From assembly GCA_036172245.1 (NCBI GenBank), contig JAYWIR010000030.1, forward strand, positions 434,001 through 498,000: a stretch of DNA of 64,000 nucleotides, given 5' to 3'. Made by a program: the position numbers and the translations under genes. The DNA is from Raillietiella orientalis (lineage: Eukaryota). Positions 1,505 through 53,342 of this stretch are shown one piece after another (positions within the stretch are counted from its first letter, which is position 1; every line of letters begins with the position of its first letter). The notes under the pieces are model-generated. The model had not been told where the DNA came from and did not search any database. It saw nothing but the letters and a program-made list of their open reading frames with translations.

Positions 1505-2944
1505 GACTTGATGGGAGCACCACTGCTATAGAAAGAGATAAACTTGTTAATGAATTTAATAAGAATCCAGAAATCCTGCTATTTCTTATATCTACTAAAG
1601 CAGGCAGCCTGGGCATAAATCTGATTGGTGCCAATCGTGTTATTGTGTTTGATGCCTCATGGAATCCATGTCATGATGCACAGGCTGTTTGCCGTGTTTA
1701 CAGGTATACAAAGGGCAGTTGGAATTTTCACAGACAAAAACATGCACGTAGGTATGGTCAAGCAAAAGAATGCTTTGTTTATCGATTGGTTACGGACTGT
1801 TGTTTGGAAAAGCGCATTTATGATAGACAGATAAACAAGCAGGGAATGGCTAACAGAATTGTAGATGAACTCAATCCAGATCTCCTCCTGTATATGAAAG
1901 ATGTCACTACATTACTGAATCCGAGTGATGATGATCCTCCTCCTTTTTGCTTGAGTTCATGTCATGAAAACTATTCCGATAGTATTTTGAGAGGAACTTT
2001 GCTACAATATGGGACACGAATCACAAAGGTTGGGTTAGTTATATAGTTTCTCATTTCATTATAAGAACAGGAACCTTTTGAGCATGAGTCCCTGCTGATG
2101 GATAGAAAGGATAAAAAGCTCAGTGCTGCAGAGAAACGTTTGGCAAAACGCTCATATGAGATGGAAAAGCTGGCCAGTTTTAATTCACGGATGCATGCAA
2201 ATTTAAGCTATAAAGCGTCATCAAATCTGACCAAATTTATGTCCAGCCCTTGGTTTTCTGGGTAAGCTTACATACTTTATTTGAAATCTGAATTTACTAA
2301 TGATACTAAACTTTGATAGTGTTGAGCAAAGCCCCCTTGCAACTGCACATTTGTTGAATGCTTCTCCACACACAGAATGCTGTCCCTTCGAGTCGTCAAG
2401 ATATTTTTCTGCCAGTAATCAGTACAATAGTGATATACACAGTAAGGTGGATGTGTATGATATACGTACTATTTCAAGAGGTATGTTTTCGATTCACATA
2501 TGATTCATATTTTTAGTTTGCTACTCTTTGGTAGACTTGAGTATTCCAGTTGGTAATACAGGGAATTTCATTCATTTGAAAGCTGGTGAGCAAGTTACAA
2601 TCATTAAAAACCTCAATGGTCTGTATTTGAAGACATCAGATGGCAAAATTGTCGCCATCCATTTACCACCCAGTGCTCAGTTTCCTTTAGAATACTGTAA
2701 TACAAGCGACTCCCATTATAAAGTAGAAAATAATATGGATTTGAAAAATCCATATAATTTTTCAGACAGACAGAGACAGCCAGCTTTTCCTCTATTACCC
2801 ACTGTGGAGAAAAAAGAATCATCAGCTCCAAATTTTATATTAAATGAAGAAAAAGCTGTTGCTGATGAGAACAAAGAGTTGTTGGACAATTTGATCAGTC
2901 ACACTTTGCTACCAAGTTCATTTCCTAGAACTGTATTATTATGA
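1505..2944 (+). CDS. RAD54L2: SNF2-family helicase ARIP4/RAD54-like 2, C-terminal 5 exons (5' part lies upstream of the window)
   Basis: Exons 1505-1703, 1752-2028, 2071-2261, 2320-2480 and 2535-2944, all GT-AG and phase-consistent. The product has HELICc motifs (LDGST, [44 protein letters not shown]). It also has ARIP4-specific blocks: IYDRQINKQGMANRIVDELNP, EPFEHESLLMDRKDKKLSAAEKRLAKRSYEMEK and AGEQVTIIK..GLYLKTSDGKIVAI. Stop TGA at 2942-2944. Confidence 0.93.

Positions 2945-21781: not shown

Positions 21782-21784
<3 letters not shown>

Positions 21785-21816
<32 letters not shown>
21785..21816. repeat. Long poly(T) tract
   Basis: About 32 T residues, directly visible. The window has many similar A/T and G/C runs. 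Confidence 0.9.
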
Positions 21817-21823
<7 letters not shown>

Positions 21824-24560
21824 ATCACGTCATGGAGCTCTGGCCGAATGGAAGGAAAGTGGAAGACGTGGGAATAAGAGATAGGAAAGAAAAGGTAGAA
21901 AGTATAGCATATGAAGGAATTGTAAGCAAGTGCATGAATGTGGCCTTGAAGCAAAAGCAGATAATGAAAAAATACTACAGCAGAATGAGGCAGTCTCAGC
22001 AAGCAGAATCGCTCTAACCTGTCCGGGTCGTCTAGGTCGCTCTCGCAATCCCAGGATCAAAAGGAGTAGGGGGAAAATGAAAAAAAAAAAAAAAAAAAAA
22101 AACTTTCTCTTGAGCACCACAACGTCCGGGAGAACGTGGAGCTCTTGCGCAGACGGTGCAAACCGCGGGTCTCGCGGGAAACCACGAAGAAGTGCACAGA
22201 GTTTAAGGAGAGCTGGGGCGGACGAGATGCTCCGAGCTTTCGCGCCAGTGCTCGTAGGTTGCCTACGCTCCCAGATTACTTCCCTTTTATCTTCGCCCTG
22301 GAGACGAATTCGAAATCCGTTATTCTGTGGCGGAGGATTTCTGATTGCTTGACCACTCTATTTACACAAGCAGATAATGCAATGATCGATCTGTATCTTC
22401 ACTGCACTTCTAAAGCAAGATCAAATAAGCAAATCTAACAATTGCATTTGGCAGTTATCAGCTTTTAGATAAAGGAATCCCAGGTTCTGAGAATGCTTAT
22501 CTCTGAGATAATTTTTCTTCAAATAACAGAAAGATTCATGCAGCCGCTGCGGCGATACGTAAGAAGTCTGAACTGGAAGTGAGAAAAAAAAAAAAAAAAA
22601 CATGCATCGGACTGCCGCGTTGACACTAAGAAAGAGTAAGTTTTCCATATTTTTCCTACTACTACTGTTCAGTTGAATAATCGTTTAATCAAAGATGAGA
22701 GAAACTGCCGGGCTCTCGAGTTTTCTGTGGTTCTCACAACGATGAGGAGACCGGCAAGAATGAGCGAGTGGCAACCGTGAGACGCGATCGTACGAATGCA
22801 AAACGGAAACGTTTTTGTCCCACCGAGAAACGCAAAGGGGGGGGGAGGTAATGGAAATCATGAAGACTTACTGATTCGATGATTGCAACGGAGAAGGCTT
22901 TCAAAGAATCATCCTGCCCGTAATCTTGCGAATTCATTGCCGCCTTCATCGCAGTAGCACTGAAGAAGCTAATTGAAGATACAGTGTCGACGGGAACCCT
23001 GCTAAATCCTGCCATTCGAGGGAAAAAGGGGGGAAAGCGTGGTCGGACGGGGTGGGAGGAAAATTCCGGAAACCCATCGAAACAATGGGCCGAATGTGAC
23101 GCAACAGACGACATTTCGTTTTGCCAGCCGGCCGTTCCAAAGGAAGGATGGGAGGGGGGGGGGGGGAAGTGGGCTTCGCGCCATTTTGGAATCATTACCA
23201 TTCCGAACCGAAATGAACATGCGAATAATCATCATTGGGCAGTCGCGGTTAAAAATTACGGAAATTATAGTCCGGTAGTTCTTGGAAACTCAACCCTTGC
23301 AAACATTTTTAAGTGGGTCGCATGGGATCGGCACACTCGGAAGGTGAGTGCGTCGATTAAGCCAGGACACTGGTTTGACCGTTGCTGCTGCCCATTAGTA
23401 GGGATATGGGGGGTATGGCCGGGACTTCATTTCTCGTCCCCCCTCCACCCCTCCCATCGTAAAATGCGAACTCTGCAGCACACGACTTCGCCGCGGATGG
23501 AAATTTTCTGTTGGGGAAAAACTGTTCCCCTGCAAGAAGCGTGGAGAAAGGTGCGAGCCGAAAAAGCATCAGCCAAAAGAAAAATCACAAAAGGCAAGGA
23601 GAGCCGCAAAGTTCTGGCAATAAGCGCTGATTTCAATGAAGGATAGAGGCAGAAGATTTGTATTTTCATTTGATCTGCGGCTTCATGAATATTCGGGAGG
23701 AACATTTGTCCCCAAGGGCAGTTATCAAATAATGACGAAGATTCATTGAAACTGCTACTTGTGAAAGGTTTCCAAGGATTCCTTTCCTTGGGAACCGTCG
23801 TTCGTGAGGGATTGTGGAAAGAGTTTCCTGAAAGTATACAGAGAATGGTTCGAATTAGGAATCACTGCTTTTCTGATTCGATAACATAGGGTGGTGCCTT
23901 TTCGTAATAGTAAAATATTACGGAATCTCTGAATCAAATGTTTAATTGCTCAAGATTTTTGCCTTGTTCTTGAACACACCAGAAGGCACATTATCAGAAG
24001 GGGGGGGGGGGGGAGGACCTTATTGCTATTGCGTTTGAATTTTGTTGACATGGTCTCGGTATTCTATTAAGATACTGAAGAACCCTGCGACGACCGAAAA
24101 ACAGTATGGGAACCATCCAGTTACTGATAAAGTTAAAGAGCATGCCTTCGGACTCTACACCAATGACTAATTGCCAATGCGGACTTCCGAAGAGGGGCAT
24201 TTCCTGGAGTTGCGAATACCAAGCCAAGAACTACGTTCGTTCGAAATTGCATTCAGCCACACCACACCATACCTACGGCAGGCATCGTTATGACTGCTCA
24301 AGCAGTCTTGGATTTCCGTTGGGATGCTCATTCAGCTCGTTTATCATTCAAATGCCCTCCTCATGAGTAGGGTACTTGGTGTGGGGGGAAAGGCACAGTG
24401 CTCAACTTTCCTCTTTCACCGGCCAGAACGAAAACAGAGAGGCAACGAAAGTCTTCGCATCGTACACCAGCTTCCACAATCCACGGTGCAATCATATAAT
24501 TATGCACCATTCAAGTTCTGAGAGCGCTTTCACTTCTCCGGTCTCATGTCTAACGTGTTT

Positions 24561-24850
24561 CTCTCTCTCTCTCTCTCTCTCTCTCCTTTTTTTTCATGCA
24601 AATCATTCTCGGTGTATCTTCTGGAGGATGTGACAACCTTCCATCCGTAATAATAACCACAAGTTGACATGACCGTACGACGGGATCATCATTAGTGATT
24701 ATTCTTGTCACGTTTTACAGTGTTTTTATTTTCACGTTCGTTTTTGTTTCCTTGTGGGTGGGTGTGTTTCTTTTCATGTTCTTTTTTTTTCTCCCCCTCT
24801 TTTCCTTTCAAACTCATGCAGGAGTTTTCCACGCTTCCACTTGTTGGCAG
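24561..24850 (+). promoter_or_regulatory. Candidate promoter and 5' micro-exons of the GPI-anchored gene
   Basis: (CT)n/GAGA tract at 24561-24584 and Inr-like TCATTC at 24603-24608. A possible donor follows AT (24628-24629|gtgaca). A 29-nt exon at 24822-24850 has a strong polypyrimidine tract with cag and a gtattg donor, and its phase-1 end matches exon 27086. Confidence 0.35.
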
Positions 24851-27085
24851 GTATTGAGATTTTTCTGGATGCGGGACCGCTCTTCAGCTCTGAACCACCA
24901 CCGCTCTTTCCTTCCAGCTTGGCTATTGTTCGGGGTTTCCGTTATGGTGGGATCTTCCCGAACCGCCTCCATCCAAAGTGGTCAGTTTCAACCGAATGCG
25001 TCCATATATCATGCGTTTCTTTCTCCTTTTTTTCTTTTTTGCAAAACAGGTACGGTTTGAAAATTTACCGATGCGAGGAATGAGACTTTGGGTTCATTTT
25101 TCATACGACTAAAGTTTCCTCGACTTGAGCGAGGCCCTAAGAGTAGAAAAGCAAAGGTCACGCTGAGAGATGGGAAGCCACTTAAAAAGGAAATGGCTTT
25201 TTAATTAGCTTTTTTTCTTTACTGTGGAGGTGAGAAGAGCCGTTCGGTTGTACGACCATTGAAAACTCAGCTGTGATCGCAAGAAGAAAGGAAAATCGTG
25301 AGGAGGAGGTCAAGATGGAGTTAGACCATCGGAAGGTTGAGGTTCCGACGAAGAGCTCCCTCTTTCCGCAATCAGGGCCTGAGGAAAGGTTGGGATCCCT
25401 CATCCAGATAACTACTGTCCGTGGCCTCTTCTATCGGACGCTCGCAATCTTCCCCGTGCGCAGCGAAGTGACCCGCGGTGACGCGTCGTTTCCTCGGGGC
25501 CGCGCGCCGCGTCAGCGGAAGCACGCGAACGTGCCGGCGACGCCAGCGCCACTCTGGCTGTCGCCGTAAATCAGCCAATGCAAATAGCAGAGCGGAAAGG
25601 CGCGACCGAACATCCTCCGAAATTGCAGCCGCCGCTGCAGCACGTAGATAACCCCGATAAAGAAGAGGAGCATCGGAAGCGACCATCCTACGCCACCAGA
25701 ATAAGCCTCGATCGAAACTGGACCTGAAGGGGAAGCGACAGCAGTAAGGCGGATTCCCCGGATTCTCCTCCTTTTCCCCGTCCTTCTCCTTTTGTGCGTG
25801 TTGGGTGCATCCGTGTTTTCGCTGTTATGAGCATGTTAGGTTGAGCTGTTTTCCTCCTCCGCATAAATCGCACCTCGTTCACGTGTCCACTGCACATCAA
25901 AGAGAGAGTGCTCCCGAAGAGGGGACCTTGAAACTTCCACGATATTTCCTCTTTCGTTGCCAATACGTTCCAAATTCCTACGGAAGTAATGAAAGTCGCG
26001 TAACGAAACCGAACTTTTGCTAAGGAGCCGAAGCGAGAGAAAAACGACTTACGTCACCCCTCTGTACAGTACGCCGGCTGTCCTGACACAACCGGTGCGT
26101 TCGCAGCACCGGATGTGCACATTTTGTCTTGGGGACGGATGCGTCCGCCGGTCCCAACGGTCTTCCGGTGACTCAGACCAGCAGCACATCCTTCGTTGCG
26201 TGCTCCGCCGGGTGCATCTTCGCTTCCAGCCTCGCCTTCTCCCGGGTTCGAATCGCGGCTAGTGCAGGGCGGGCTGGGTTCGGGCTTCGAGGAGCGAACC
26301 AGGCGAGAGCTTTCAGAGAAGGGATGCTTTCGAATGACTAGCTGGGCAATGCCTGGAACCAGGAACCGGCAGGGGAGACAGCCTATCTGGAACGTGAGAC
26401 TCCAGCTTGGAGGAAGGTGAGGAGAGAGGGAGGTCCATCTTATGCAGGGGAGGAATGCTGAGTTCGCCTATCTGGCATCACGGCAGTAACCACGATGCTA
26501 AACCTCGTGGACCTCTGGCGCGGCAGCAACAGAGAAAGAGACTGAAAGAGCAGTGGAGCTTCTGAAACGTCTACCAAGTCTGCATGCTCTGAAGGAGCCG
26601 AAGATCGAGGAAACTAACGGACCCCACTCTCCACTCGTACGCCTTTCGCGCGGGATAAGACCTGGCACCGAAGACATCGCCCCGCCTTCGCGCCAGCGCC
26701 AGCGCCAGATTGCTATTGAGTCGCCCAGAGAGTCGCCGCCTGGCCGTTTCTTGAGCAATCGGTTTGCCCTCTTCCCCCTCCTTCCACGCCTTGTGTGCTT
26801 GGATGGGCGGTGGACGGAAGGGCAAGCGCTCCCTGTGCTCCTCGTTTCCGTCTCGCCAGGAAGCCATCACGAATCGCAGCCGAGAGAGGTTGGTGCGGTG
26901 GAGAGGAAGGGGGGTCTCAGGAAGACAGGATGTTGGGAGAGGCGTCTTGCAAGGTCAGGGTCAGGAAGTCTTGGGGGTCGCTGCCTCTGTCGATGGCTTC
27001 CCAAAGGTCCCGTAGAGCCCTCCCGTTCCGGCTCGCGTGACGCCCGTGGTGTCCGCTGGCGGTTGACCTGCCTATGTTTCCGTAG

Positions 27086-30000
27086 GCATTCTGCTCGCTC
27101 TCTGCAGCCTATTCTGCGGGACCATGACGGCCGACCTGCACGCAACCATGGTCCGCAACACCTTCTTCCAAATCAAGCCCTGCTACGAGCACCCCCTCTT
27201 CGACAATTTCAACCGGGATCCGCTGCATCTTGATTACTTCTTGACTCTGCTGAAGAAGATCGAGAGCAGCAACCTCGTCTCCCAGTGGGGGACGAAGCGG
27301 ATTCTGTTCAGCTTGCTGCGGAGGTGAGCACCTGCAAAGCGGACAGCGCGCTATGCCGCAGCCGGCGCCGCATGGTTAAGAGTCCCTCTCCTGACTCCTC
27401 CTTCTACCCCCTCCCCCATCTGGAATAGGGAACTCGTCGCCGCCGCTCCTCTCCCGTTCTTGCCCCTTCTCCCTCCTCCCTTTCCCTCGCCGGTGAGCGT
27501 CTGCAACAGCGAGCGTTCCCGGGAACGACCTTTTCTGAGCCTCCAACATCCAGTTCCCCCTTAGGGGAAGAGAGATTAGGGGAGGGGGGCGATGGCAGAG
27601 GTGAGACACCTTGGAAGATCCGCAGGACCTGCGCATGCGCCCAGAGAGCTGCGCTCGTAGCACAGGTCTTGAAACGGGACGCGGAAAACGCGCATGGAAA
27701 AAAAACCTTCCTGAAAGGAGCAACCCTCTTTTCAACTGCATCTCGAGCGGCCCTGCGTGCTCCCCTTTCCCCATCCCCAGCTCCACTTCTTCCTCTTTCC
27801 TTCCTCTTCTTCCTCCATTTCTTCACATGAGGGCGAGACGGGACGGTTTCACCTCCCAGTTCAGTTTTTCCGGTTCGACTTCCAGAGGCGCCACGAACGT
27901 CGGAAAGCAAGAAAAAAAAAAATCCCCTTCCCCCCCTCCTCCCTTCGTTGCAAGCAGAAGATTCTCCCTCTCCCCTCCTAGGAAGCGACTTTCAGTTGAC
28001 AGATGAAGTCTAATCTTTCTTTCTTGAAACCGTCGCCAAGCGAAGCGGATCTTCTCGGCGGCGAAGCAGCGACCCCCTCCCCTCTGGAGAAGGTCCGCCC
28101 GGGAAGCTACGGGGGAGAGAGGAAGAGGCCTCGGGGCGCCTCGCTGCTCCGGAGAGTTCCTCCTCTGGGGCGTTGCTTTCGAGGGGTTCATGCAAAGGAG
28201 GCGACAGCCCCCTGTGGCGAGGAGGGGACGCCGCTGAGCGATCCGGCAGCGACCTACAGATTTCAGCATCCACAGTCGTCGCTGCTTCGTGATCTTCTTG
28301 CGGCCACCTTCCTTCCCCCTCACCCTCGCGCCCCAGGAGGCGGTGCGCGGAGGCCTCTGCTTCCGTATCAGCACGAACCCGCAGTTTCCCCGGTAACATG
28401 CTTTTCTCTCTCCGTAGTTACCAGCTGAGCGGCATCTCCCTGCGTTCCAACATGACTGAAGTCCTGGTAAGTGACGGCTTTGTGACTGCGCGCGTCTGCG
28501 GCGTCACCAAGGAAGCCATGTGCCCGCCACGATCCTACGGACAGCATCATCTGGAGCGCCAGCGCCTTCCTCCTTGCGTCCTTCCGCACACGGGGAAGTC
28601 CCGTGGAGGCCTTCGTAAGCTTCTCCTCTTTCCCTCTTCGGGAAATAGGGGAAGCACTCGAGAAGTGGTCAAGTGATGGCTTTTTAGGGAACGGGGGAGC
28701 GCTCAGAGCAGCCACCTCGGGGCGTTGCTCGGCGGTGCATCCGCCCGATTGCCCCCCACGTCCTCCGGTCTTCAACGTCTTTCGTGGCGGTCTATTTTGG
28801 AATCGCCGCGTTAATCCCCGCATGCAGCTCTGTGCGACCAATCCATGCCATGTGACGCGATTCCGATGTAGAGCACCCCGTACCCCTATTTGTAGGACCT
28901 CTATATCAGCACCATACTCGAGTCTATTTATAGCACCTCGATCGATCTTTCCACATAGCATTATTCACAGAAGTATACAACTCGATCTATTTATGGAATA
29001 TCCCTGAATCTTTGCATAGGACATCGTTCTATTTATAGAACACTGCTGGATCTATAAACAGAACGTTATTTATTGGATACTATTCGATCTATTTATAGGA
29101 CGTTACTGGTTGCATTTGTGGTATACCAACCACATTGAGCATCGCGCAGTCTACCTATCATGCACTCACGGCCTTTCCGAATGTTACAGAAGGACAGGCT
29201 CTCAGGGCCTGTCCTTTTGTAGACCGCGCGACATACCTTCCCTCCCCTCCCTCCTCTCCTCCTCCCATTCTTCCACACCCCTAGACCTGAGAGGACGAGT
29301 GAACAGACACTCCTTTTGCTCTTCCTCGCGTAACGACTCCTAACAAGATTCCGCCCCTTCGCTGTGGGCACGTATGGGCACGGGCCTTCCTCCTCAACCA
29401 TTCGCTCTCTCCCAGGCGAGCGCCAAGTCGAATTCTAGGGGGATCGGAGGATGCTGCGCTGCCTTTTTTCGGAACGATGCGTCAAGACTCTCAAGAGGTC
29501 ACACGGCTCTTGGTCGGTCGGGTCAGGGTCGGGTGCCGATCCTCGTCGGTTGGGTGCCTGCTGTGCGGTTCCGTTTCTCTTGAGGGGGACCTCGGGTCAG
29601 GCGGTGCGGTGCCATGGGGCAGGGGGACGGTCGGAACGTTCGTCCATTCCCCTCAAGAGCCTCGGTAGGCCTCACCTCCCCCCCACCCCGATGGGCCTGG
29701 CGGAACGGGTGACTCCCGAATCTCTGCTGCTTCAGATACCCGAGGAAAGCTCCAAGGACGCCTTCCTGGCGACCATCGGCGCTGACATCAACATCGAGGA
29801 GTTCCGCATCCCTGATGGCATCCTTTCGGACGAGGAAATGGTGAGTTCCTCCCCTCCCCCCTTTTCCTCAGGGGGTGACCCATATGCCCTCCCCTTCTGC
29901 TCCGCGAACATGCCTTCCTGAGAGAGATGCCCTCCCTTAGTGCTGCATGCACAGGATGCTGTCACACGTCGTCGGAGACGCCATGGTGAACCCCGACAGC

Positions 30001-33000
30001 GGTCCCCTGCTGTCCAAGAAGGTCGTGTCTTCGTCCTCCAAGCAGCTCTCCCAGGGCGACTTCTCCTTCGGGAAAGGCGGCGCCGACAGGGGACGCATCA
30101 GGTGGGTGCAGCATGCGCCGGCTAGGGGGGTTGGGGCGTAGGCAACGTGCCCACCGGTCGGGTACCCCTCGTAGTGGACGTGGGCAGCCGAAACGGGTAA
30201 ACTCGTGGCCCTCCAGCCCTTTATGTGCTTACCTTAGATTCTGGGGATCTTCCTCGAGCTCTTCCTCCCTTGCCATGCCCCGAAATCCTCCCTTGCTCTC
30301 AATCAGGGCCTGAGGAAAGGTTCGGGTGCTCTCGTGTCCTGGGCTACTCCCTACACTCCTCGGGGACGCGTCTGTCTCCTTGCGAGACAGACCTCCTTCC
30401 GAAGGCACCTAGTCCATCCTTCAATCGCTCCATCTCCAGCGAGGGTGCAGGGGTCTTTTGTTCCCATATCTCGAGGGACTATCCAGGGCGCAGAGAACAT
30501 CCCGGAAGATCCATCCTGGGAGTGTCGAGTAGAAGAGTTTCCCTCTTTCGCCTCGGGGTTCGCGGTCCTCCTCCTCCCCTTTCCTCTCGAGCCACTAAGG
30601 AGGGTCTCCAAGACGCTTCCGGCACCGTGCGTGGGGCGGCGTCTCCCTTCCCTCCCTCTGCAGCGTCCGCCGAACCTCCCTTCCGGCGCACCTCTCAGCT
30701 GCTTGATGGAGTGGCTGGGCAGCGGCGGAAGGGCATGCCCGGAGGAGCTTCATCGAAGGTCCATCCTTCCTCACTTTTCTTCTTGCCCTCCTTTTCCTTC
30801 TGCGCAGCTGCCGTCTTCTTTCTGAGTCCTTCTTCCCTCTTTTAGGCCCTTCGGCGGCGGCGGCGGCTGGAAGGAGGAAGAGGCGTCCAAGCAGGAGGGC
30901 GGCGTCGTGTACACACGGGGCGGCGGCACTGTGGCCCTGGGGCTGGTGCTGCAGGGCATCGCCTTCGCGCTGGAAAGACAGGTCGTGGCCATCCGCGAGC
31001 TGCTCCCGCGCAACTACCACGTGGAAGACCGCTACGCCGGGAAGAGCGTCGACAACCTCTGGGCCGGGACCCTTGCAGGTGCGCGCGCGCGCCCTAGTAC
31101 ACCTTGGCCCCACGGAAGGCACGCGCCCGGGGCCTCTCCGTCCTTACTCCTTCTCCTCCTCTCCTTCCCTCTTTCTCCCCGCAGGCGAGCTGGCGCAGAC
31201 GGCGGTCTTCGACTGCCTGCCGTACATCGAGAGCACATCCTCCTTCCGGCTGCCCAAGGGCACCTACGGCGACTGGAACAGCACGGCCTGCCCGGACAAG
31301 TTTGTCCTCCAGGGGCCGTCCACCTGCATGAACAGGGCCGAGATCTACGGCGGCATCGACGGTGAGCTCCCGGGGTGGTCCTTTCCCCCCCATCCTCCTC
31401 CCCGCGGCCTTTTAGGGCTTCCACCTCCCGGGGTCGTCGCACGCGCGTCTCGGGAGGCAAGCGCAGGGGGGTGGACCGGAGAAGTCCGGAGCTTTGCCTT
31501 CTCCCGGCATCACCCGCGTCTCCTGTAGGCCTGCTCCTGGGACTCAAGATGGGCGCCCTGGACCGGGACTACATCAGCCTGTCTCAGATCCTAGAGATGT
31601 ACTACAGCGACCACGGCCTCAGCACGGACTCCGCCTACAAGGCCTGCAACCGGATGGCCAACTTCGGCCAGGACGTCCGCGCGAATGAGCTCAAGGACCA
31701 GGTGCGTCCTTCTCTCTTCCCCCCTCCTCCTCCTCCTCCTCCTCGCGCGTGGAGAGAGGGGGGGGATCGTCGGCGCCGACCACCCGCCTCCTCCTCCAGG
31801 CGCAGATAACCGCCTACGCGTTCTACGCGCACGTGGACGGCATCTATCCGAAGATTCTGGGAAGCTCGAACAACATCGACAGCTGCATCTCCATGGCCAT
31901 CGACAACATCAACCAAGCCCTCGGTGAGGAGTCCCTCCCCCCTCCCACCTCTCGTCGAGCCCCTCCGGGCAAGAGAGTCAGCCTTCTTATCCTCTTCTGG
32001 CAGGTTCGGCGGAGGGCCGCGACTACGACTCCTGCAGCGTCGCCCTGAGCAGGGGCAGGCAGCGCCTGTCCTCCTCCTCCTCCACCTTGCTGAAGCTGGA
32101 GACGGTGAGCCCCGACGTCTACGTGGTCATCGATTTGTACCGGTCCTCGGACGACGAGGTCGCCAGCATCAGGGCGGATGCGCTGTGAGTGGACGAGGGT
32201 CGTCCATACTCCGGGTGGCGGTGTCTCTCGCCTCGGGGAGCCAGGGGTCAGGGAAGGGAGAGGGAGGGGGACTGGTCGTCCGGTCGAGAAGAGGTGGGTC
32301 TTCCTCGGCGAACTGTCAGATCCTGTCCGGTGCACTCCAGTTGCGGACGGGATCTGGCAGATCTTTCGCTCGTGGTGGTTGCCTCGTTCCTCGCTCCCTC
32401 CCTCCAGAAGGCCGAAGAGACGGAGGGACATGATGAGGGTGTGTCGGGCCGAGGAGGGGCCCGAACGCCCTCCGGCCGGCCCACTCAGCGCGATCCCGTG
32501 GTTGCAGGTCCATTCTGGCTGACCTGGATGTCGGAGTCAACAAGAGCTGGGTGGAGGTGCTGGCTGCCCAGGGCAGTCGCGTGGACCCGCTGTACTACCA
32601 CGACAAGGACTTGGACGCGTCCCGCATCCGCTGTCTGCTGATGCACGCGTACTTCGGTAGGGAATGTGCTCGCCTGGGAGGAGGAGCTGACGACTTCCGT
32701 CCCGCTGCTGTCGCGCGCGCGCGCCTCTGTCTTCCTCCTCTTCTTTTCTTCCGGTTCGTTGCCTTCCTCTTCCTCCTCCACTTCGTTCCATCTCCTTCCA
32801 GGGAAGGCGAACTCCGTGGTGGACCTCGGATCTGTCTTCGACGTCCTCTACAAGATCTTCGAGGACGAGCGGAGGATGGAAAAGCGCCGCCTGGATCTCG
32901 CATCCAACCCCAAGATCGTGGTGCTGTTGCTGTACAACAGCTTCACCGACTCGGACACGCGCTCTCAGGGTCGGGTCCGTCGGTTCAAGAGTGACTTTCC

Positions 33001-36000
33001 AGGTGCGTCCATCCGCTCGCGAGCGACTAAGGCGCTGGTCGCGGCGCAGGGGCAGCGGGCACGTATATCGGCGCACTCTGGTCCCCTTCGAGCCCACCTC
33101 TCCCTTTGCCCTTCCCTCGCCGCTCCCCTGCCAGATCAGGGAAGCGGAGCGGACCGAGGGTGCGTCCGTGGGATGGAGTGCGGGAGGCAGATCGGTCGCT
33201 GCACTTCCACGTGCAGCGCGGGGCGCGGTCCAAATGCCGTCCCCGACATCTTCCTCGCTTTCCTTCTCTCGAGTCCTCTTCCGGATCCTCGGGCAGTTCC
33301 CCCCCCTTCTGATACCAACGATGACCGGAAATCTACGTCTTCTCCTGGCCGCTGCACAGTGACTCCGCAGCGACCAACCTGCCTCCGCTTTCTTTTTCAT
33401 ACCCGGGCAGGGCCAGGTCTCCGTCCCGTTCCCCTCCCCGGGATACGTGAGGACTCCCCTGTTTGACCTTGGAAGAAACCACGGTGTCCCCCCTTCCAGA
33501 TCTTCCGCTCGCGCGGCGTCTGGCGTCTGGAGACGGAACCCATCCTGGTAAAGGGGCAGGAAGAGGGGAGAGGAGAGGCGCGAAGTTGGTCGTGGGCGCG
33601 CCTGGGAAAGAGGTCACCAGCTGCGGGTGCTGGAGTTTCGTTTCCCGGCCACGTGAGTGGCGCGGCCCGAGCCACCCGCCAAGCGGCGAGCGGACCGCGC
33701 CACAGTCTCCTGGGCACCCGGGGCGCCGTCGTATGCGTTTCTTAGGAAGCGAGGATCACGAGCAGGTCGCAGCGGGCTGCTCGGCGCTCGTGAAGGCAGT
33801 GGGAAACACCCGCGAGCGTCGCTCCGACCGTGTGTGCCTCGAGGGGCACGGGTGGACAAACGGAAACCTTCGAGACACCAGATCCCTGAGCACCTTCCCA
33901 GGGGCACCGAGGACTGCTGGAAGTGCCCGCAGTGCCACCGCTGCGGTCCAGCAAGCCAAGTGGCCTGAGGAACGTAAGCTCGTCCGCTACCCTTCCAAGC
34001 CATGCGCGTCGTAGTCTTCGTTTCCACTGTGCTTCATTCCGCTACCCGGCGCCTCCACAACCCCTTCCTTCACCGTCTTCTCTGTTCCCCTCGTATCCCT
34101 CCGGCCTACTCTCCATGATGAATGCTCGAGCAGCGATTGGACGAGGCAGAAGGCATCACGGTAATGAGGTGACAACTCGATCTAGGTTGCACATGCGATT
34201 TATTTTCATTAAACGTGGCGTATCCGTTCGTTTGCTGTAAAGGGCGCGCGGGCGCGTTCACTGCAGCCATGCGAAGGCAACGATTTGCAGAAATCGGGGA
34301 GGCAGGCTTGGCATCCGTGGTGCGATCACGTGGCCTCTCGAAAGCATGGAGGCGCCGCAAAATGGTCAGAATGCAGCGGAGTAGGGAGGGGGAGGGGGTA
34401 GCGTTTTCTTACCCGGCAGGCCGCCTGGGCTCAAAGTGGAGTCCGTGGTGGGCGGATGCGGCGAGACAAAGTCTGCATCGTAAACAGGTTCCGAGATTTG
34501 CCTCCGTCCCGTGCTCACGTACCTTTTCTTCCGTTTCAGATGTGAAAATACTCATTGTGGGCGCCGACACGAAGTACAGCTCGATAGCCACTAATAAAGA
34601 CTACTTTGTGTCAATCAGGAGCAGCGATTGGCTGAGTAGGGTGAAGCAAATCCTGACAACTGGTAAGATAAGTACGTTGTAAATAAGGAACGCGTTGCCA
34701 GGGGTTCCCTCAATCCGATCTTAATCAGGCTCGGTTTGAAATCGGGCTGCAGGATTTTTCGATAAGACTTTTCAAGATTCTGCTTCTGTTGCAAACAGGA
34801 TGTCTTCCACGGTGCGCGGGGGTCCCTATTTAACAGCTAGCGTGCGGTGTGATCCTTGCTGTGCGCTGTCAAAGAACCACGACCTCATGGGAACGGTTTA
34901 CTTTTTTTATTATGCTTGGGCTTTGTGGTTTCCTATCCGCATCGGTATCTGATGGAACGGGGGCACACTGTTCGCCTCGATGCAACTTCGAGCTCAGAGA
35001 ACACGCCATCCTATTAGGTTGGTTGGGAGACCAGACTGCCAGGAGGATCATCTCCGCACCTTGATTTACATCATTGCGTATTTTCACGGAGGTGTTTCTG
35101 AACGATGAAGGCTTGGGAGCTCTCAGGCACACCACCGTCCGAGAACGTCTGACCATCACCGCGACGCCCTTACTGTTCCCTCCCTGTGGTTACCGTACGT
35201 CCGCTCTTGGACAGGATTGGCTTTTGTGCTGAAGGAGAGCATTCGAGCAGCTTCCATCACTGCACCGGACTTCACTTCGGTTGAGTTTCTGGCGACGTCG
35301 TGTTTGCCCCCACCTATTCGCCCGTGCTGTTTAATGAGGCTCATCTCGTGAGCCAAACAAATATTTATCAGACCAGAGGCAAAGGAAGCATGGAATCATT
35401 AATTAATTGGAAGGAGGGGCGGAGGGGTGGAAGACTTGCCGATGGTGAAATCGCAAACGTTTCATCCGAGCAGAGCACCTACGTGCTTGTTATCTGCCGT
35501 GTACATCTGCAGAGAGAATCCTGTCTCTCGAGGAGGGATGCGTTTCGCTACACCGCGTTGCGATGCGTCATCGGAACTGTCCCGAACGGGCTTTCCCGAA
35601 CGCTTCGCGCTGTCCCGGATTCCCATTTCCCCGCCGGAAGTTGGCGATGCATTGCTGATGAAAAGCGACACAACCCGTCCCTCATTTTCTTTCCGCCAGT
35701 CCTGCGTTCCTCCGATGGACGGCAAGGAAAACACCTCCTTTAATTTTGCCTCGTTCAGTTTACTTTCTCCGCCTGAATTCTCTTTACCTTTTCGAGAATT
35801 CGTGATGTTCTCTTCTTCATACGTGTTTTCAAGGCACTCCCCTTTTAATCATGTAGTTGGTGTCTGCACACTCCCCCTCCACCCCCTCGCCTGGTTGACG
35901 ACAAGTCTTTTCTTCTTCTTCTTCCTCTTCTTCTCCCATCCATCCCTTTCCAGGCGTGCACGTTGTGCCTTCACTGTCGGAATGTACTTCACGTCTTGAG

Positions 36001-39000
36001 ATTTGTCACCACGGCGCGAATTTTCATCCTTCTGTCTTCATCGCTTTCGTTTCCCCCCGTGCATTCCAGAACCAGAAGCAAGGCATTCTTTGTGAGAATC
36101 ATTCAACTGTCGGCTCATACACTCACAGCAGAGTGTAATTGAAGGTTCATTAGCGTTGTGAACGCGGATATTTTTCATGTCTGACTTTGCAGGTAATGTG
36201 ATTGCAAAGCTTAATGTGGAAACAAAACAAAACAAAACAAAAAAAAAAAAAAAAAACGCGGGCCTTTGCTGCTTTCGCAGACTCCTCTTAATCCCAATTA
36301 ATTCCAAGGACCCTGATGATTCAGGTAGTGACGTAAATGACTCGAGTTCATTTTTCTCTTTCGCCTTCCACTGCTGAAAGTACCGCTTCATTCGAACTTC
36401 CCATCGTTCGGATGGTGCGGTGGGAAGCCCCGCATGACGCGGGATGCCCTGTAACGTAAATCACATCATCGGTCTCAGGAAGAGCAATTCTTTCTCCATA
36501 TGAGCAGTTTTCTTTGTGACCGCTGGATCAACCACAGCCTACACCAACAAGCGTTTGCGCCCTTCTTTCTCTCTCTCTCTCCTTCCAGAAGCTCTCGGCC
36601 TGTTGATGTGAAATCTCGTGTTCTTGCAGCACTCGTTGTTTATGCACGGGGAATCTGCACAGTGTCGAGCATTCACCGTGTTTGTTTACATCCCTGGCCG
36701 AGGATTCGTGCCAGGCAGCAGTCCTCACATCCCTTAGTCGTCCTCGGGGGCGGCGCCTACAGTTGCACCTATTTGCCGCGTGTTACCTCAGATTTGGATC
36801 ACGAGGCAACGAGCTCGACGCGTTTCGGTCGCCAACCCCCTGCATCCCGGTCCGGATCTTCCCAGTGCCGATCCTTCCTCAAGGGTGAGGGCAGTGGCTA
36901 AGAGCCGATCGCCCGTCGGGCAGGAGACAGCTACAGTGGTGCGCGAAGAGGGGCAACGCTCTGCGGCCCCTCTCGTCCTGGTCGCTGACGAAGGGGAGAG
37001 AGAAACGCAAGCGTTTTCGGAAACCAGGGCGCGAGCGGGGCGCTAATCCGGAGATGTCGCTGCTGTCTCCGCTTGCGTGCGGATTCCATTACTGAGGCTG
37101 TTTTTCCTTTTCTTCACGCGTCCCACGTTCGCTTTCAGCTTTTTGGTTTCCCTTCTCCAAGTCGCCCTGCTTTTCCTTTTCCAGTCGTTTCGTGCCTGAA
37201 CGTCGTTTCTCCCGAACTCTTGCCCTTTCCGCCTTCGGAAGAAAGGTGTTGGTGTTGGTGTGCGAGCGCGCGCTCAGGGAGAGGGGGGTAGGGAGAGGGG
37301 GAGGAAGAAGAGGCGAAACTTTTTGCCTTTGGGACTTGCTCCATGCCAAGCTGCGTGATTTTTCAAGGATCGCTGGATGCTCGACCCAGACTCAGATGCC
37401 CTCTTGCTCGCGACGTCTTTCACAGCTGCTCTCCAGTAACGAACACAGTCTTGATTTTTTTTTTTGTTGTTTTTGCTTCTTATCTTTGTTTTCTTTGAAT
37501 GGCCTCCATCCCGTGTCCTTGATGTGCGCCAGCGGGGCGTAAGCGACGCAAGCACGCCTGGAGACAACGTGCGTAGGACTCGGCACACACGTCAACCCCT
37601 TTCTCTCCCTGTGCGTGCGCGCTCTCCCCTGTGCGTCCGCGAGGTCAGCCACACCGCAGCTCGACGGCCGCGTTGTTCTCTCCCATGGAGGGATACGGCG
37701 CCCTTCCTCTGCTTCTTTTGCATCCGGAAGAATTTCCGGAGGCAAAAACGACGAACAAACAAACACGAAGCGGCGGACGGGAGAGCCAACAGTGCTCACT
37801 CGAACCCCTTCCTTTCAGCACCGAACCGGTTGTTCTCCTACCAGTGCCAGGATGGAGCCGAAGCGCGGTTCCGAGAGACTCTGTACATGACTCCGGGATA
37901 CGTCAAGGTCTACGAACTCTCCTCCAAGTACTTCTCCCTGAGTTCGTCTTTTGCGATCAAGGTAAGGCAGGGAGTTCCCACAAAGGGGAGGAGAGGGGAG
38001 CGCGCCCTTCTGCGCGCAAGCCGGTCGGTCCGTGCTCTCCCACCTGCTCTCCTCACCGCGATGGCAGCGCGGATGCAAGTTCCTTCCGTGCTCAAGGCTA
38101 CGACCGAGAGGAGAGGGGAAGGGGAGAACCTGCAAACCGTGCGCGCGGTTCCTTTGGGCGTGGCGTCCTCCACGGCTTCTCCCCTCAGATCCTCTCGGCT
38201 TCCCCCTCGAGAGGGAAGAGGGGGAAGAGGAGGAAGGGAGGGAAGAGAAAGAGGAAAAGGGAGAATACCAGGGCCACTCGAGCCCCCCTTTCGCTTCCTT
38301 GGCCTGTGTGGAGATAGAGGGGGAGCACTTCCCTACCCTCTCCCTGCCACTTGCTCCTTTGCTGTGTCCCCAGCGTGCGCATCTTGGCAAACCAACGGAA
38401 CGGGGTTCTTCGGTATACAAGGTCCCCCCCCCCTTCCCCCCAAAAAAGAAGCTTCCAGAGGAGGTGAACGGCACAGCAGCACACGGCTTGTTCTCCTCGT
38501 CTTCCTTCTTGCCTCGAACGACGGAAGAGTGGACACAGATGTCTCGACATGGAAGGCACTCGCTTTTCCAAGCTACCACTTTCTCCTGGCCCGTCACCTT
38601 CTCCCCCACTACTCCAGCACGTCCTGGTCGGGGGGAGGAGGACGTGCCTTCTTTCCCTCTCCCGCTCCCGCGGGATCCTCCACAGACCGGTCGCCACGAC
38701 GACGCGGAGCGAGGGATCGACCCCGCATTCGGGGTCGGGCATGGGCACACTCCTCGATCCAGAAGCATCCTTCCAGGACTCGTCCCACCCCGATCTCCTC
38801 CCTCCGGGAGTGGGACGATCCTAGCCATCGGAGCAAACGCGCTGTTTCACCTCGCACCAGCGTCCACCAACGTCGTGGCGGCTTCTTGCCACGGAGCACG
38901 GCGTTTTCGTATTCCCTGGTAAACATGGTTCCCACCGACGCGCGTGGGGAGCCGTGAGGTCTGCCCAACCCTCGAAATTCGGCCGCTGACTGTGGGATGG

Positions 39001-40106
39001 CGGGCGCGCAGGAGTCTTTGAATCCCTCAGTAAGGGATGGCAGCGGCATCACAAGCTCTCCTGTTCCTCCCTCTCTCCCTTTCTTTCGTTTTTTGAGACG
39101 CGTTGGCCCCTCCCAAATCATCCCGGCTCCGCGATATTTCGCATCCGAGCGTGAGGCTGCGCTGACTCGGAGATAAAAAAAAAAAAAAATGGCGGATGAC
39201 TGTGGAGGGTCGGAAGGCGGACAGCTCCCTCCCAAGGGAAAGTAGGGGGCGGGTGGGAGGAAGAGGGCTGATAGGGAACGAGGAACTCCCCCCCCCCTCC
39301 CGTGAAATTCCAGTTAGCAAAGGAAGGAGAGTTGGTTTCTTGGGAGAGCTCCAACAGGAGATGCTCTCTCCGAAATGCACTCTAGGTGGGGAGCGCCCGG
39401 CTCCTGGTAGCGCCTTCCTCCCCGGTCAGCGGACCAGCCCCGAACCAGAAGGAGCAGCCGGTCCAGGAGCCTCCCAGAATGTGGCTCTCGCAGGTTCCCT
39501 TCCATTCCCCTCTCCCGTCCGCAGAGAACGCGCGCGTTGGCACGGCCGACTTATCGCGGGAGGTTTCCCACCCACCCGCCCGGAAAAGAAGGGTGGGCGG
39601 AGGGGGAGGAAGCAAAGGAAAGAGGAAGAAGACGGGACTCATCCGTGCACGCGGCCGCGTGCGTGCGGGCGCTTCCAGCTCCAGAGCGACAACGGGGCCC
39701 TCCATGTTTGCAGCGCCAGGGACCTGAAGAACCCGTCTGACAACGGAGTCAGTTCGAGCTGCAAGGACGTCCCCGCGAACCGAGAAGCCACCTTGCAGTT
39801 CGACAGCCCCTGCTACGACGTCAACGCCTGCAGCAGCATCTACCTGTCCATCAATTCGCAGGCCTCCGACTCGAAGGGGGACATCTGCCAAGGTGATTCC
39901 CATGATCGGGCGATGGTGGACGGAGCAAGGGGATAACTCGGAGGTGGTTCCTTGCAGATTCCTTCTGCCCCCTACCGGATCAGGTCAAGGTCACCTTGAG
40001 CTACAGCAACATGAAGTGCGGATGCATTGCGGCGGTGGTCTCGAAGATGCTGCTGGTCCTCGCTGTCTCTTTAGCATGCTTCAGACTTTACGGTTTCCAC
40101 CAATAA
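27086..40106 (+). CDS. Secreted, predicted GPI-anchored protein (about 810-815 aa): PGLYRP2 N-terminal-like domain, vWA-like domain and Cys-rich C-terminal module
   Basis: 15 GT-AG exons, all phases consistent and stop-free: 27086-27323, 28418-28466, 29736-29840, 29941-30101, 30846-31078, 31185-31361, 31529-31701, 31800-31923, 32004-32184, 32508-32656, 32802-33002, 34540-34662, 37819-37961, 39679-39892, 39958-40106 (2420 nt, ending TAA). There is strong C/G third-position bias. The N-terminus is hydrophobic (GILLALCSLFCG) and the C-terminus is a hydrophobic tail (MKCGCIAAVVSKMLLVLAVSLACFRLYGFHQ*). The start exon is not certain. Confidence 0.88.
28886..29098. promoter_or_regulatory. AT-rich intronic island with clustered CTATTTATAG (MEF2 consensus) motifs
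   Basis: Perfect CTATTTATAG at 28924, 29029 and 29089. Variants are CTATTTGTAG (28886), CTATTTATGG (28987) and CTATAAACAG (29052). It could equally be a degenerate minisatellite. Confidence 0.4.
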
Positions 40107-43300: not shown

Positions 43301-46300
43301 GGGCGGTCCCTTCCGCGCTGGCACACATCGACCAGAGAAGCACGGATTTGTTGATTTGCGTCGAACGAGTGGCTTGGAGCGACCGCGGAGGTCACACTGG
43401 GAGTTTCTTCCAAACAAAATGCGCATGGAGGGAATACGCAATGGACGGGGAGCGGTCCGAAGACGCCGCTCCTTCCAGGGACAGCCGCTCGAGGGAGGGC
43501 GGCACCGGCTCGCAGGTCGGCTGCGGACGCAGGCCTCACCGAAGTGGACTATACGTGGCAAATTAGCGGTGAGGCCAGCGTGTGAGAGGGTGAGAGGTCA
43601 TCGTCGCCGCTTCCTTCCGTGCCAACCGGACTACGATGCTGGCAACAGCTGTGACGTCATCCTTTTCGAACGGGCTCGGCTCCAGACGGGCGGGACCGCC
43701 TCGTCGCTGCCTCCCGGCCAGAACCGGGAGGAGAGGGGCGATCGGCCGGGGGCGCGGACGGCGCGCGCGCGACTCGACGGCCGCCAGACGGGGAGTGCTC
43801 TCTGGGACGAGTTTCACGGCGCCGCCTGGAACCTGGCCTGGGCGAGTCCTTGCCACGTACCTCGGGAAGAGAGCAACGTGGCCCGGCGTCGGAGGCGTCG
43901 GTCCCGCCTTCCCGCCTTTGACGCGTGCAGCGGAGCCGGTTCCCGTCGCGCGGAGCATGATCACCGCCGAGGAGGAGGAGGAAGGGAGGGTGGAAAAGGA
44001 GGGAGGAAGGAAGAGGGGAAAAGGAGGGGGAGGAAGGAAGAAGAGAAAGAGGAGGAAGACGGAAGAACTTTTCGGTCATGCCGAGGGCGTTTCCTTACCC
44101 TAGAAAGTAAACAAATAGAGGTGCGCGCGCGTACATGAGGCGCAGGAGCCTCGTCCTTGAGCGCACTTCCTGAAGACCAGCACGGCGGCGAAGACGAGGA
44201 CGGCAGGCGGAGGATGAAGCGGCCGGCGCGCGTGGCGTCCCCGCCGACCCGCTTGATCCCGACCGCGGGAGGGAGGAAGGGGGATTGGCGGCCTGCCCTA
44301 CCTCCCAGCGCGGAAGCCGGGGCCAGCGGTGGAGCGCCCGCCGGGTGCGGCCGTCCCAGCCGGCTCCGCTGGGGGAACCGACCTCCGGAGGGGGGTGCAG
44401 GATTCCCGGGATGCCTGCTAGGGGATGCTAGTGATCCGTTCGGGAGGTGCACTGGCGCCGCAAAGCACGGAAAAAGGGAAAGCGCGTGTTCCCCTCCTCC
44501 TGCCCTTCCATCCGGGTTTGCCTTGCGGTTTCCGGGACACTGCCGTGCCCGGCGTCCCCTCTGGATATCCCTTCGCCTTCTAGTTTCTCCTTGCCGCTCG
44601 CCTGGACTCAACCGCTCCCGGCTGCCCTCGTCGAGAATAGTGAGCGCGGAGTCAGGTGGCGGCACGAGCGTAATAAATGCAGGCGGACTTCCCTCGTCAC
44701 TCCTCCCCATCAAGATCCCTTCCCGACACAGCCATAGCAGCTTCGAGAATTACCCCCCCCCTCCCCCCTCTCGAAGCGGGCTAGCAGTCCCGACCGTTCC
44801 TCGAGGAATTCGAGAACCCCTCGGGCAGCGACGGCACGGCACCGGGGTCGCCGATTCTCCGCACCGCCCCCATCTCGGGGTCGCAGAAGGAGGGATGTAG
44901 CCGCAGGCAGCGGCTCAACAACATGGGCTCGTCCTCTTCCCCGCCGCTCCTTTCGGTCGATCCCGGGAGGTCGACCCCGAGAGGACAAGAAGGGACAGCG
45001 GGAGAGCGTGCCCCCTCCCTCTTGCAATGAGTTTGCTCCGTGGGCTGGCAAGGGACCTCCTGCCCTCCCGAAAGGGGCCTCATCGGCGTGGTTCCTCGGC
45101 CGCCACCCGATGGCACCGAGGAGCCACCCCGGAGACATCCCGAGGAGAGGACGAGCAAGGAGCGGCGGTACAGACGCAGCATCGCAGGCCACGCCCATCG
45201 CTCGTCCCGGTTTCTCGGAGCGGCGGTGAACCCCCTGCCTGCCTGCCGGCTATGTATGGGGCAGGCGCCGACTTCCACGGAGGAAGAGGTTCCCTTCTTC
45301 TCCTTCTCCCCGCCTCTCCGGTTGCTAAGACGACTCTTCTCGTCGGTCCCTGGGAAGATCGGAGAGGCGGCGCGGAGGTCTGGGGGCGGCTACTTGGAGC
45401 TGAAAGGCGCCGCCGGCAGTTTCGGTGGCAGCGGCACGACCCTGTGGCGCACAGAAGACCCCTTGTTGGGAGAGGAAGCTCTCGTTCCGGTTTTCCGCCC
45501 GTTGGGAGCACCCGGAAAAATCGGGCCGTCCGGCCGCTCTCGGGGCTCCCGGCTCGCTCGGGGGAGGGGGGGGGGGGTGCGACGGCGGCGGCTACCGGTT
45601 TGGAGCGTGGCCATCTCGGCCCCCTCCTGGCCGTCGTTTCCGCGGGGCGGCGCTGCGCTCGGGCAGGCGCGTGGGCGAGAGCAGAAGGCGAGCGAACCGA
45701 AATCTCCCTCCCCCGTCTCCCCGCGCCCTTCTCGGATACCGCGCGTCCCTGGCCGTTCCCGTCCCGCCGCCTCCGAAGCCCTCTCGACCCGTCGGCAGCA
45801 TCCCTGCTCTCGGGGGGAGGGTCCCAGGAGTCGGTAGAAAGACGAGGGAGGCACCCGAGATCGGTCGGATCGCCGAGCCGGAGGCGTCGTCCCGCACTCG
45901 CTGGCGCGGCGCGGTGCGTGGCCGCCGCCGCTCTCGCGTGCCCGGCGGCTCTCGCGTTCAGCACGCCGCCGTTCCAGCCAGCCAGGATCGCGCCTCGGCC
46001 GACCTCGCCAGTTTCGATGATGACTCTGCGCGGAGTCGACCAGCGGGCCACGGGCCCTCCACGCGTACCCTGCGCGCAACGGCCGGCGGTGTGCGCGCGC
46101 AGCTTTTTCCGCGCGCGCCCCGTGCCGTCGAAAGCGCCGGAAACGTGGACGCGCAAGTCGCGCGGATTTCCCGCCTCCTCCACCCGACGGGCCCGCAGCC
46201 GTGCGCATCGGTTCATCCGGAAACTTCTCGAAACAACAACAAAGGGAGGGGGAGCAGAGGAGGAGGAGGAGGAGGAGGGGGGGGAGGGGGAAAGAAAGAA

Positions 46301-52799: not shown

Positions 52800-53342
52800 C
52801 TAAAGTAAACAACAACAAATTCTTTTTTTTTTTGTTGCATTGTAGTTCATTATTATACGCACTATTTCTGCAAACACCTCATTAACACTTTTTCTGTCCT
52901 TTGCACTTGCTTCCAATATGGAACAATTCCACTGGTTTGCTAGTTCAAGACTTTCACTTTGTAACACTTCACGATAATGCTTTAAATCTACTTTATTTCC
53001 TACAATCAGAATTGGAACTTTATCAGTTCCTTTGACACGTGTGATATGATCTTTCATGTTTTTTATATCTTCAAATGTCTGATAATTTGTAAGGCTATAG
53101 ACTATCACAAACCCTTGTCCGTTTTTTATATATAAATCTCTCATGCTGGCAAATTGCTCAGTTCCAGCTGTATCCAATATTTCCAATACACACCGAGAAT
53201 TATCGACTTCAATTTCTTTTCTGTAAAAGTCTTCAATAGTGGGATTATAAGATTCTGGAAACTGTCCAGAAGCAAATTGGACTGTTAGTGCACTTTTACC
53301 AACACCTCCAGAACCCAGTACAACAACTTTGAACTCCCTCAT
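52800..53342 (-). CDS. Rap2: Ras-related small GTPase Rap2 (Rap2l-like), intronless, 180 aa
   Basis: Single ORF with G1 GSGGVGKS, effector loop PTIEDFYRK (F39 is Rap2-specific), G3 [22 protein letters not shown] (T61 is Rap-type), G4 NKVD and G5 EASAK. It ends in a polybasic stretch and CAAX box, [10 protein letters not shown]. Confidence 0.96.

Follow-up and report, generated by a model that had tools for sequence, protein, structure and literature searches.

A 15-exon gene of Raillietiella orientalis with a PGLYRP2-N-like motif series, no recognisable amidase and a GPI-signal-like tail

Here, we describe a gene on the + strand of a 64 kb window of Raillietiella orientalis DNA (the whole stretch of contig JAYWIR010000030.1 that was analysed, positions 434,001 to 498,000), which is eukaryotic and ranges in GC content from 0.32 to 0.68 in 2-kb steps. 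The gene, modelled from genomic sequence, occupies 27086-40106; its 15 exons can be joined into one open frame, and it is very probably a genuine protein-coding gene, hitherto unannotated. Its product may be a surface or secreted glycoprotein, in which a module resembling the non-catalytic N-terminal region of human PGLYRP2 (PGLYRP2-N) is joined to a von Willebrand factor type A (vWA)-like domain, a Cys module and a tail resembling a glycosylphosphatidylinositol (GPI) signal. We favour this composite reading tentatively, with slightly less than even confidence in the whole.

According to this reading, the gene would consist of 15, possibly 16, exons over approximately 13-17 kb, and would encode a product of about 840 residues in four parts. 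The first part would be an N-terminal region of about 470 residues, the second half of which would be related to the non-catalytic region of PGLYRP2; the second part, a beta/alpha domain of about 190 residues, has a pattern that would fit a doubly-wound (vWA-like) fold; a seven-cysteine module and a C-terminal hydrophobic tail, most simply a GPI-attachment signal, would make up the third and fourth parts. No recognisable enzyme domain was found in the product, and without an amidase it would be unable to cut peptidoglycan. Its most likely role would be cell-surface binding or adhesion via the PGLYRP2-like module.

The gene model was rebuilt from frame, stop positions and GT/AG sites, in a region (27-40 kb, + strand) where short open segments have translations resembling ordinary globular protein. 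All 12 peptide strings taken from the initial annotation or the list of open reading frames (ORFs) were located once each, on the + strand and at the places given for them, including the N-domain series at 30901, 31048, 31268, 31343 and 31579 and the beta/alpha series at 32114, 32548, 32909 and 34539. Eleven exons from 30846 to 40106, joined at GT-AG sites, gave 622 codons in one phase with a single terminal stop, while the other two phases contained 7 and 18 stops. The full model of 15 exons comprises 2534 bases and 843 codons from the acceptor at 27086 (831 codons from the first ATG, at 27124), with GT-AG at all junctions, exon sizes of 102-238 bases and intron sizes of 65-3156 bases. The phase-perfect 15-exon frame proposed in the initial annotation was therefore reproduced, and its exons are listed in Table 1.

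Coding potential was scored with a codon log-odds table, for which only the eleven exons from 30846 to 40106 served as the training set. A scan of the + strand from 24 to 42 kb returned 15 segments, namely the eleven trained exons and four untrained upstream ones (27085-27318, 28416-28523, 29691-29810, and 29968-30087, with the scores given for exons 1-4 in Table 1). The segments of the gene scored 11.6-36.8; outside the gene, the same scan over both strands of the 64 kb left 12 segments that exceed the threshold of 11; the best of them scored 15.3, and four are antisense to the gene or lie just upstream of it. The four upstream segments can be joined in phase to the exon at 30846, and 578 combinations of splice sites leave the frame open, so that an upstream chain exists but two of its boundaries are non-unique. 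In a phase-blind test, the end of each coding-score segment was given the best nearby donor and the start of the next one the best nearby acceptor, with phase ignored; 10 of the 14 junctions proved compatible, compared with one third expected (binomial p=0.004), and the remaining four are compatible with the second-best site. Uncertain boundaries are the weak donor of exon 2 at 28519, the acceptor of exon 3 at 29669, and the acceptors of exons 8 and 14, for each of which two positions are possible. The longest intron, of 3156 bases between exons 12 and 13 (34700-37800), has a GC content of 0.53, which is below that of the rest of the gene, and carries purine tracts as well as runs of poly-T/poly-A; its + frames gave no Pfam match.

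The likeness to PGLYRP2 had been proposed from five short strings of the human protein, which were quoted in the initial annotation and were here checked against print. Strings 1, 2, and 5 lie inside peptides listed under Q96PD5 in the available part of supplementary file 2 of PMC5090863 (20 Q96PD5 rows), and string 5 is also inside a PGLYRP2 peptide in a table in the available part of PMC3549705; the last four letters of string 3 form the start of another PGLYRP2 peptide printed in these parts of both sources. None of the five strings was present in the supplements of PMC3549705 (in the part available), PMC8633286, PMC4334607, PMC8455557, or PMC5530927.

When the strings were aligned to the product, the best ungapped match of each was found at the place first proposed and in the same order, at residues 243, 292, 330, 355, and 378. 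The collinear BLOSUM62 total of all five, which covers residues 243-387, was 156, compared with 68.2±7.7 in 300 shuffles (maximum 89). For the three printed strings alone the total was 94, compared with 45.2±5.9; none of 5000 shuffles reached 94, and the highest total among 87 decoys cut from the window's other ORFs was 53. The printed peptide around string 1 shares 11 of 33 residues with the product, and the 21 C-terminal residues of the one around string 2 share 10 (both counted by eye); since the ends of the printed peptides were set by trypsin and not by the initial annotation, this extension of the matches lies outside its choice of strings. On these motif matches, we regard common ancestry with the non-catalytic region of PGLYRP2 as reasonably probable. 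The proposed PGLYRP2-N likeness is thus upheld at the level of ordered motifs, while database, profile and fold comparisons added nothing to it.

By the numbering that we take to apply, strings 2-5 presumably fall within residues 209-377 of PGLYRP2. The available part of PMC11996887 describes residues 209-377 as a hepatitis B virus (HBV)-DNA-binding domain, a function proposed only recently; it also places a disordered region at 164-208 and mentions a signal peptide. According to the available part of PMC3686734, neither a three-dimensional structure nor a homology model of the PGLYRP2 N region existed as of 2013. Our literature search found no explicit statement of 'unknown function' for this region. 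No Pfam family for the non-catalytic region of PGLYRP2 was found in the Pfam scans of the exons, and no solved structure in the PDB matched the N-region exons.

The outside searches used single exons, or one-frame read-throughs with X at stops, as queries, which makes them weak tests; with queries of 40-77 residues in libraries this large, relatives at 25-35% identity could be missed, and empty results are partly due to the poor representation of near relatives of the source animal. Their outcome, together with the vWA comparisons, the start of exon 1 and the choice of the strings considered further below, weighs against the composite reading. An exhaustive HMMER search of 1.84 billion representatives with exon 5 (77 residues) returned no true relative and did not retrieve PGLYRP2; its one hit, a 1177-residue bacterial protein (E=1.1e-5), was rejected as an artefact of seven matches on a 24-residue repeat. 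Word-index protein searches with exons 1 and 6 gave no match, metagenome contigs searched with exons 7 and 11 gave 442 and 596 pattern hits but no relative, and the ESM Atlas gave no usable hit with exons 5 and 7. The similar insect proteins mentioned in the initial annotation were not found, either with exon 5 in HMMER or with exons 1 and 6 in the word index. Rows returned from the PDB for alanine racemase (E=0.11) and for the GAIN region of ADGRG3 (E=0.93) are at chance level.

In Pfam, no family rose above its cut-off, whether each exon, the two- and three-exon read-throughs in frames 0 and 1, or the + frames of 26001-50002 were scanned. Among the weaker rows, Myotub-related (E=0.049) and POTRA_2 (E=0.2) are far below the cut-offs, a THOC3 beta-propeller row (E=0.15) falls in intron read-through, and DUF7763 on exon 1 (E=0.14) scores 12.9 bits against a cut-off of 27; all were set aside. 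Amidase_2 (PF01510) was likewise not matched by any exon or by any of these three + frames (E up to 0.1-10), although such scans may miss a domain that is divided among several short exons. No amidase exon was seen, and the claim that the protein is amidase-less is supported within the reach of Pfam.

As read by eye, hydrophobic runs, five or six in number, alternate with amphipathic segments in residues ~480-690, which end in a strand-helix pair with a Cys and are followed by a module with seven clustered cysteines. Whether this region is vWA-like, as its pattern suggests to the eye, we judge to be an evenly balanced question. The metal ion-dependent adhesion site (MIDAS) of vWA domains has the motif D-x-S-x-S ... 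T ... D, which is not kept here: D-x-Y-x-S follows the first strand, and Y-N-S, not T-D-G, follows the fourth. With the MIDAS residues absent, any ligand binding by the beta/alpha domain would not be via metal. The vWA family of Pfam was absent from the scans of the exons and of the read-throughs with exons 9 and 11, and phmmer against the PDB gave 0 rows for the beta/alpha exons. A vWA profile was built from 30 bacterial PF00092 domains and run against the spliced protein, the region cut out of it, the reverse of that region, and 500 shuffles. The score of the spliced protein was 0.1 bits, which placed it 28th among the 334 rows listed, while the best shuffle reached 3.3; the cut-out region did not appear in the output at all, and the hhalign probability for vWA was 0.13%. 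The profile test is a weak one, because a bacterial profile leans on MIDAS residues and is a poor probe for a decayed eukaryotic domain. Co-folding of four beta/alpha exon peptides as separate chains (score 0.01, mark 0.34) speaks neither for nor against the fold. The vWA-like domain of the initial annotation accordingly failed in Pfam, PDB, profile and hhalign comparisons alike.

As for the N-terminus, position 27086 stands directly after a pyrimidine tract and TAG and is a splice acceptor, not an initiation codon, so the signal-peptide-like start described initially was not borne out. From 27067 on the frame is open; the first ATG in it, at 27124, lies 3' of an 11-residue hydrophobic run, which is preceded by no ATG within exon 1; secretion therefore needs an upstream coding exon ending in phase 1. 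Eleven phase-1 ATG-to-donor candidates are present in 20000-27080, among which only the mini-exon listed in Table 1 has a full consensus donor; speculatively, it would add a short polar N-terminus and an initiator before the hydrophobic run.

The extreme C-terminus is the one strongly hydrophobic stretch of the protein, whose eight highest 19-residue hydropathy windows all begin at residues 813-821 of 843. A Lys interruption leaves an uninterrupted hydrophobic core of 12 residues, followed by nine mixed residues and preceded by the small residues S, N, C, G, and C. Judged by hydropathy and by reading, the end of the protein follows the GPI-signal pattern, in which small residues and a short spacer precede a hydrophobic tail that runs to the last residue. 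The tail would fit a GPI signal better than a transmembrane helix, as the 12-residue core appears too short for a membrane helix. GPI anchoring would nevertheless be plausible only if a 5' exon provides the signal peptide; of the anchor proposed initially, the C-terminal half agrees with the sequence, while the signal peptide that it requires was not found. Outside the tail there are 18 Cys, and the protein has 3 N-x-S/T sequons.

Several other explanations have to be weighed against the composite reading. That no functional gene is present, and that the frames arose by chance in GC-rich DNA or belong to a pseudogene in decay, would agree with the many long ORFs which such DNA yields here, with the poor donor at 28519 and with the lack of any homologue. 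However, 15 segments follow one phase with no internal stop, splice signals stand at the edges of the coding-score peaks, and the composition is protein-like, with many AT-rich codons amid introns of 59% GC: the share of A, G, P, R, and S in the product is 0.345, while 533 ORFs elsewhere in the GC-rich block have 0.478±0.094, and that of K, N, I, Y, F, D, E, and M is 0.355, compared with 0.231±0.079 in the same ORFs. We consider this explanation very improbable. Alternatively, the gene may be real but a lineage-specific orphan, whose PGLYRP2 matches are a by-product of picking the best blocks and reflect no common ancestry. The strings were chosen after the match had been seen, and their order and spacing in PGLYRP2 are assumed; each block alone scores 28-37 in raw BLOSUM62, which is about the level of the single best chance block for such lengths (estimated with Karlin-Altschul constants), and the link has received no profile, database or fold support. 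Two of the five strings are missing from print: string 4 entirely, and string 3 apart from its last four letters, were not found in the main texts searched, nor in the supplements of PMC5090863 and PMC3549705 (in the parts available), PMC8633286, PMC4334607, PMC8455557, and PMC5530927, so that strings 1, 2 and 5 alone are confirmed in full. On the other hand, the five best matches stand in the right order within 145 residues, no shuffle came near their total, and the matches continue into the flanks of the printed tryptic peptides, on whose ends the initial annotation had no influence. An orphan without common ancestry appears unlikely, though it has to be taken seriously.

Two further alternatives concern parts of the protein. 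The beta/alpha region may be not vWA-like but a decayed peptidoglycan recognition protein (PGRP)/amidase domain, as in a PGLYRP2-type pseudo-enzyme, or some other Rossmann-like fold; it occupies the place of the amidase domain of PGLYRP2, and the failure of every vWA test and the absence of the MIDAS agree with this explanation. Amidase_2 was equally undetected, however, no His/His/Cys zinc-site pattern is visible in exons 9-12, and a vWA domain of ~190 residues agrees better, as read by eye, with the count and spacing of the hydrophobic strands and with the strand-helix pair at the end than does a PGRP domain of ~165 residues. This alternative, too, appears unlikely. It may also be that translation starts at the ATG at 27124 with no signal peptide, in which case the product would be a cytosolic, tail-anchored protein, neither GPI-anchored nor extracellular. 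This ATG is the first of the frame, has an A at minus 3 and lies 3' of the hydrophobic run; the candidate 5' exon is no more than one among 11 weak options, and three sequons in 831 residues are few. In contrast, a strong acceptor (pyrimidine tract and TAG|G) at 27086 is followed immediately by the in-frame hydrophobic run, the tail has a core of 12 residues, which would make a short tail anchor, the 18 Cys that lie outside it, with a cluster of seven, speak against a cytosolic protein, and PGLYRP2 itself is secreted, to judge from the signal peptide mentioned in the available part of PMC11996887. We consider a cytosolic product improbable, and the composite surface or secreted glycoprotein remains our preferred reading.

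Compared with PGLYRP2 (Q96PD5), the window protein has ordered short matches to five stretches outside the PGRP domain, and in both proteins the matched region is N-terminal to an alpha/beta domain; PGLYRP2 is secreted, as the window protein may be. Unlike PGLYRP2, it has no detected Amidase_2/PGRP domain and lacks the long disordered insert between the first two matches, while it has ~240 extra upstream residues, another C-terminal half and a membrane tail. With MIDAS-less vWA (PF00092-type) domains of surface proteins, such as those that precede a Cys-bearing beta module in anthrax-toxin-receptor-like proteins, it shares (by eye) ~190 residues of alternating hydrophobic strands and amphipathic helices, with a Cys close behind the final helix and, beyond that, a module containing Cys and a tether to the membrane; it differs from them in having no profile or sequence match in any test, in the replaced metal-site residues and in the large N-terminal domain in front. 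The calcium-channel alpha2delta subunits are GPI-anchored surface proteins of similar layout, in which a helical N-terminal part and a vWA-type domain precede a GPI-type tail at the C-terminus, but the window protein is ~300 residues shorter and has no MIDAS; no Pfam match to VWA_N, Cache, or VGCC_alpha2 was found in the exons or + frame read-throughs.

Table 1. Exons of the gene model and a candidate 5' exon (window positions).
Feature	Position	Strand	Remarks
Candidate 5' mini-exon	23322..23343	+	ATG, 7 codons and one base; donor AAG|GTGAGT; speculative
Exon 1 (U1)	27086..27323	+	Acceptor TAG|G; donor GAG|GTGAGC; codon score 19.1, untrained
Exon 2 (U2)	28418..28519	+	Codon score 12.6; weak donor CAT|GTGCCC, boundary uncertain
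Exon 3 (U3)	29669..29840	+	Codon score 11.6; donor ATG|GTGAGT
Exon 4 (U4)	29941..30101	+	Codon score 15.6; donor CAG|GTGGGT
Exon 5 (A)	30846..31078	+	Matches to PGLYRP2 strings 1 and 2; PGLYRP2-N-like region is 30901-31608
Exon 6 (B)	31185..31361	+	Match to string 3, start of string 4, N-S-T sequon
Exon 7 (C)	31529..31701	+	End of string 4, match to string 5
Exon 8 (D)	31800..31923	+	End of N-terminal domain; acceptor 31800 or 31806
Exon 9 (E)	32004..32184	+	Ser-rich linker, then first hydrophobic beta/alpha strand from 32114; D-x-Y-x-S
Exon 10 (F)	32508..32656	+	Beta/alpha region
Exon 11 (G)	32802..33002	+	Beta/alpha region; donor CAG|GTGCGT at 33002; phase-blind pick favoured 32974
Exon 12 (H)	34540..34662	+	Final strands and helix of beta/alpha region
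Exon 13 (I)	37819..37961	+	Cys-containing C-terminal module begins
Exon 14 (J)	39685..39892	+	Cys-rich; acceptor 39685 or 39676, same phase
Exon 15 (K)	39958..40106	+	Stop 40104-40106; 40011-40103 small residues, then GPI-signal-like hydrophobic tail

The neighbours of the gene were scanned against Pfam with 84 of the 418 ORFs of at least 75 residues, namely those below 50% GC, and four of these matched. A long exon at 1495-2043 (+) encodes the Helicase_C part of an SNF2-family ATPase, nearest in the PDB to ATRX (E=8.9e-29); a stretch of 16 residues in it has no counterpart in ATRX and may be a short in-frame intron. At 52803-53342 (-) lies an intact, intronless small GTPase of the Rap2 subfamily, of 180 residues with a Cys-rich CAAX-like tail, which is ~75% identical to human RAP2A by eye (RAP2A E=2.6e-72) and has its best relatives among arthropod proteins (76-78% identity); a bird protein given as top hit is a duplicated bird Rap2 and no indication of the source. 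The exact sequence of this GTPase was absent from a collection of 15 billion proteins, and the gene is possibly a retrocopy that has diverged. At 60935-61537 (-) lie two class I/II aminotransferase exons, with Pfam E=6.9e-9 and 1.1e-9; an in-frame TAA in the match, which could have pointed to a variant genetic code, sits in a G|GTAAGT donor and hence belongs to an intron. The Rap2-like and ATRX-like neighbours point to an animal source, probably an invertebrate with few near relatives in the collections; a coccidian origin, which the GC-rich DNA with its many purine/pyrimidine tracts had suggested, was rejected because of them.

These genes form AT-rich islands within GC-rich (0.52-0.68) non-coding DNA. 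The GC content at third codon positions (GC3) is 0.85 in the 15-exon gene, compared with 0.24 in the Rap2-like gene and 0.30 in the helicase exon, a contrast for which biased gene conversion, differing gene ages and an assembly artefact are possible causes. A multi-exon gene with a GC3 of 0.85 can go unnoticed between AT-rich genes. Further downstream, a purine-rich tandem array at 43970-44066 has a unit of 25-27 bases in 3.2-3.7 copies with 80-82% matches; the block around it (44-47.5 kb) has a GC content of 0.60-0.68, and both of its strands carry overlapping ORFs, the longest of 699 residues; these are probably non-coding, as their translations are of low complexity.

If the motif match is a coincidence, the gene encodes a further orphan surface protein, from an animal that is poorly sampled. 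The amidase domain makes up less than half of PGLYRP2, and the remainder has no Pfam family; the protein collections that were searched contain no relative of exons 5 and 6. Until now, the non-catalytic region of PGLYRP2 has been taken as vertebrate-only and without relatives. We propose, with considerable reserve, that this region is an old portable extracellular module, which occurs amidase-free in an invertebrate together with a MIDAS-less vWA-like domain and a GPI tail. If true, PGLYRP2 would have arisen by fusion of the module to a PGRP amidase, and the binding activity of the module, be it for a glycan, the matrix or nucleic acid, could be investigated apart from the enzyme. An enzyme-free relative would set the borders of the module, reveal the residues conserved across phyla and provide a clean binding system.

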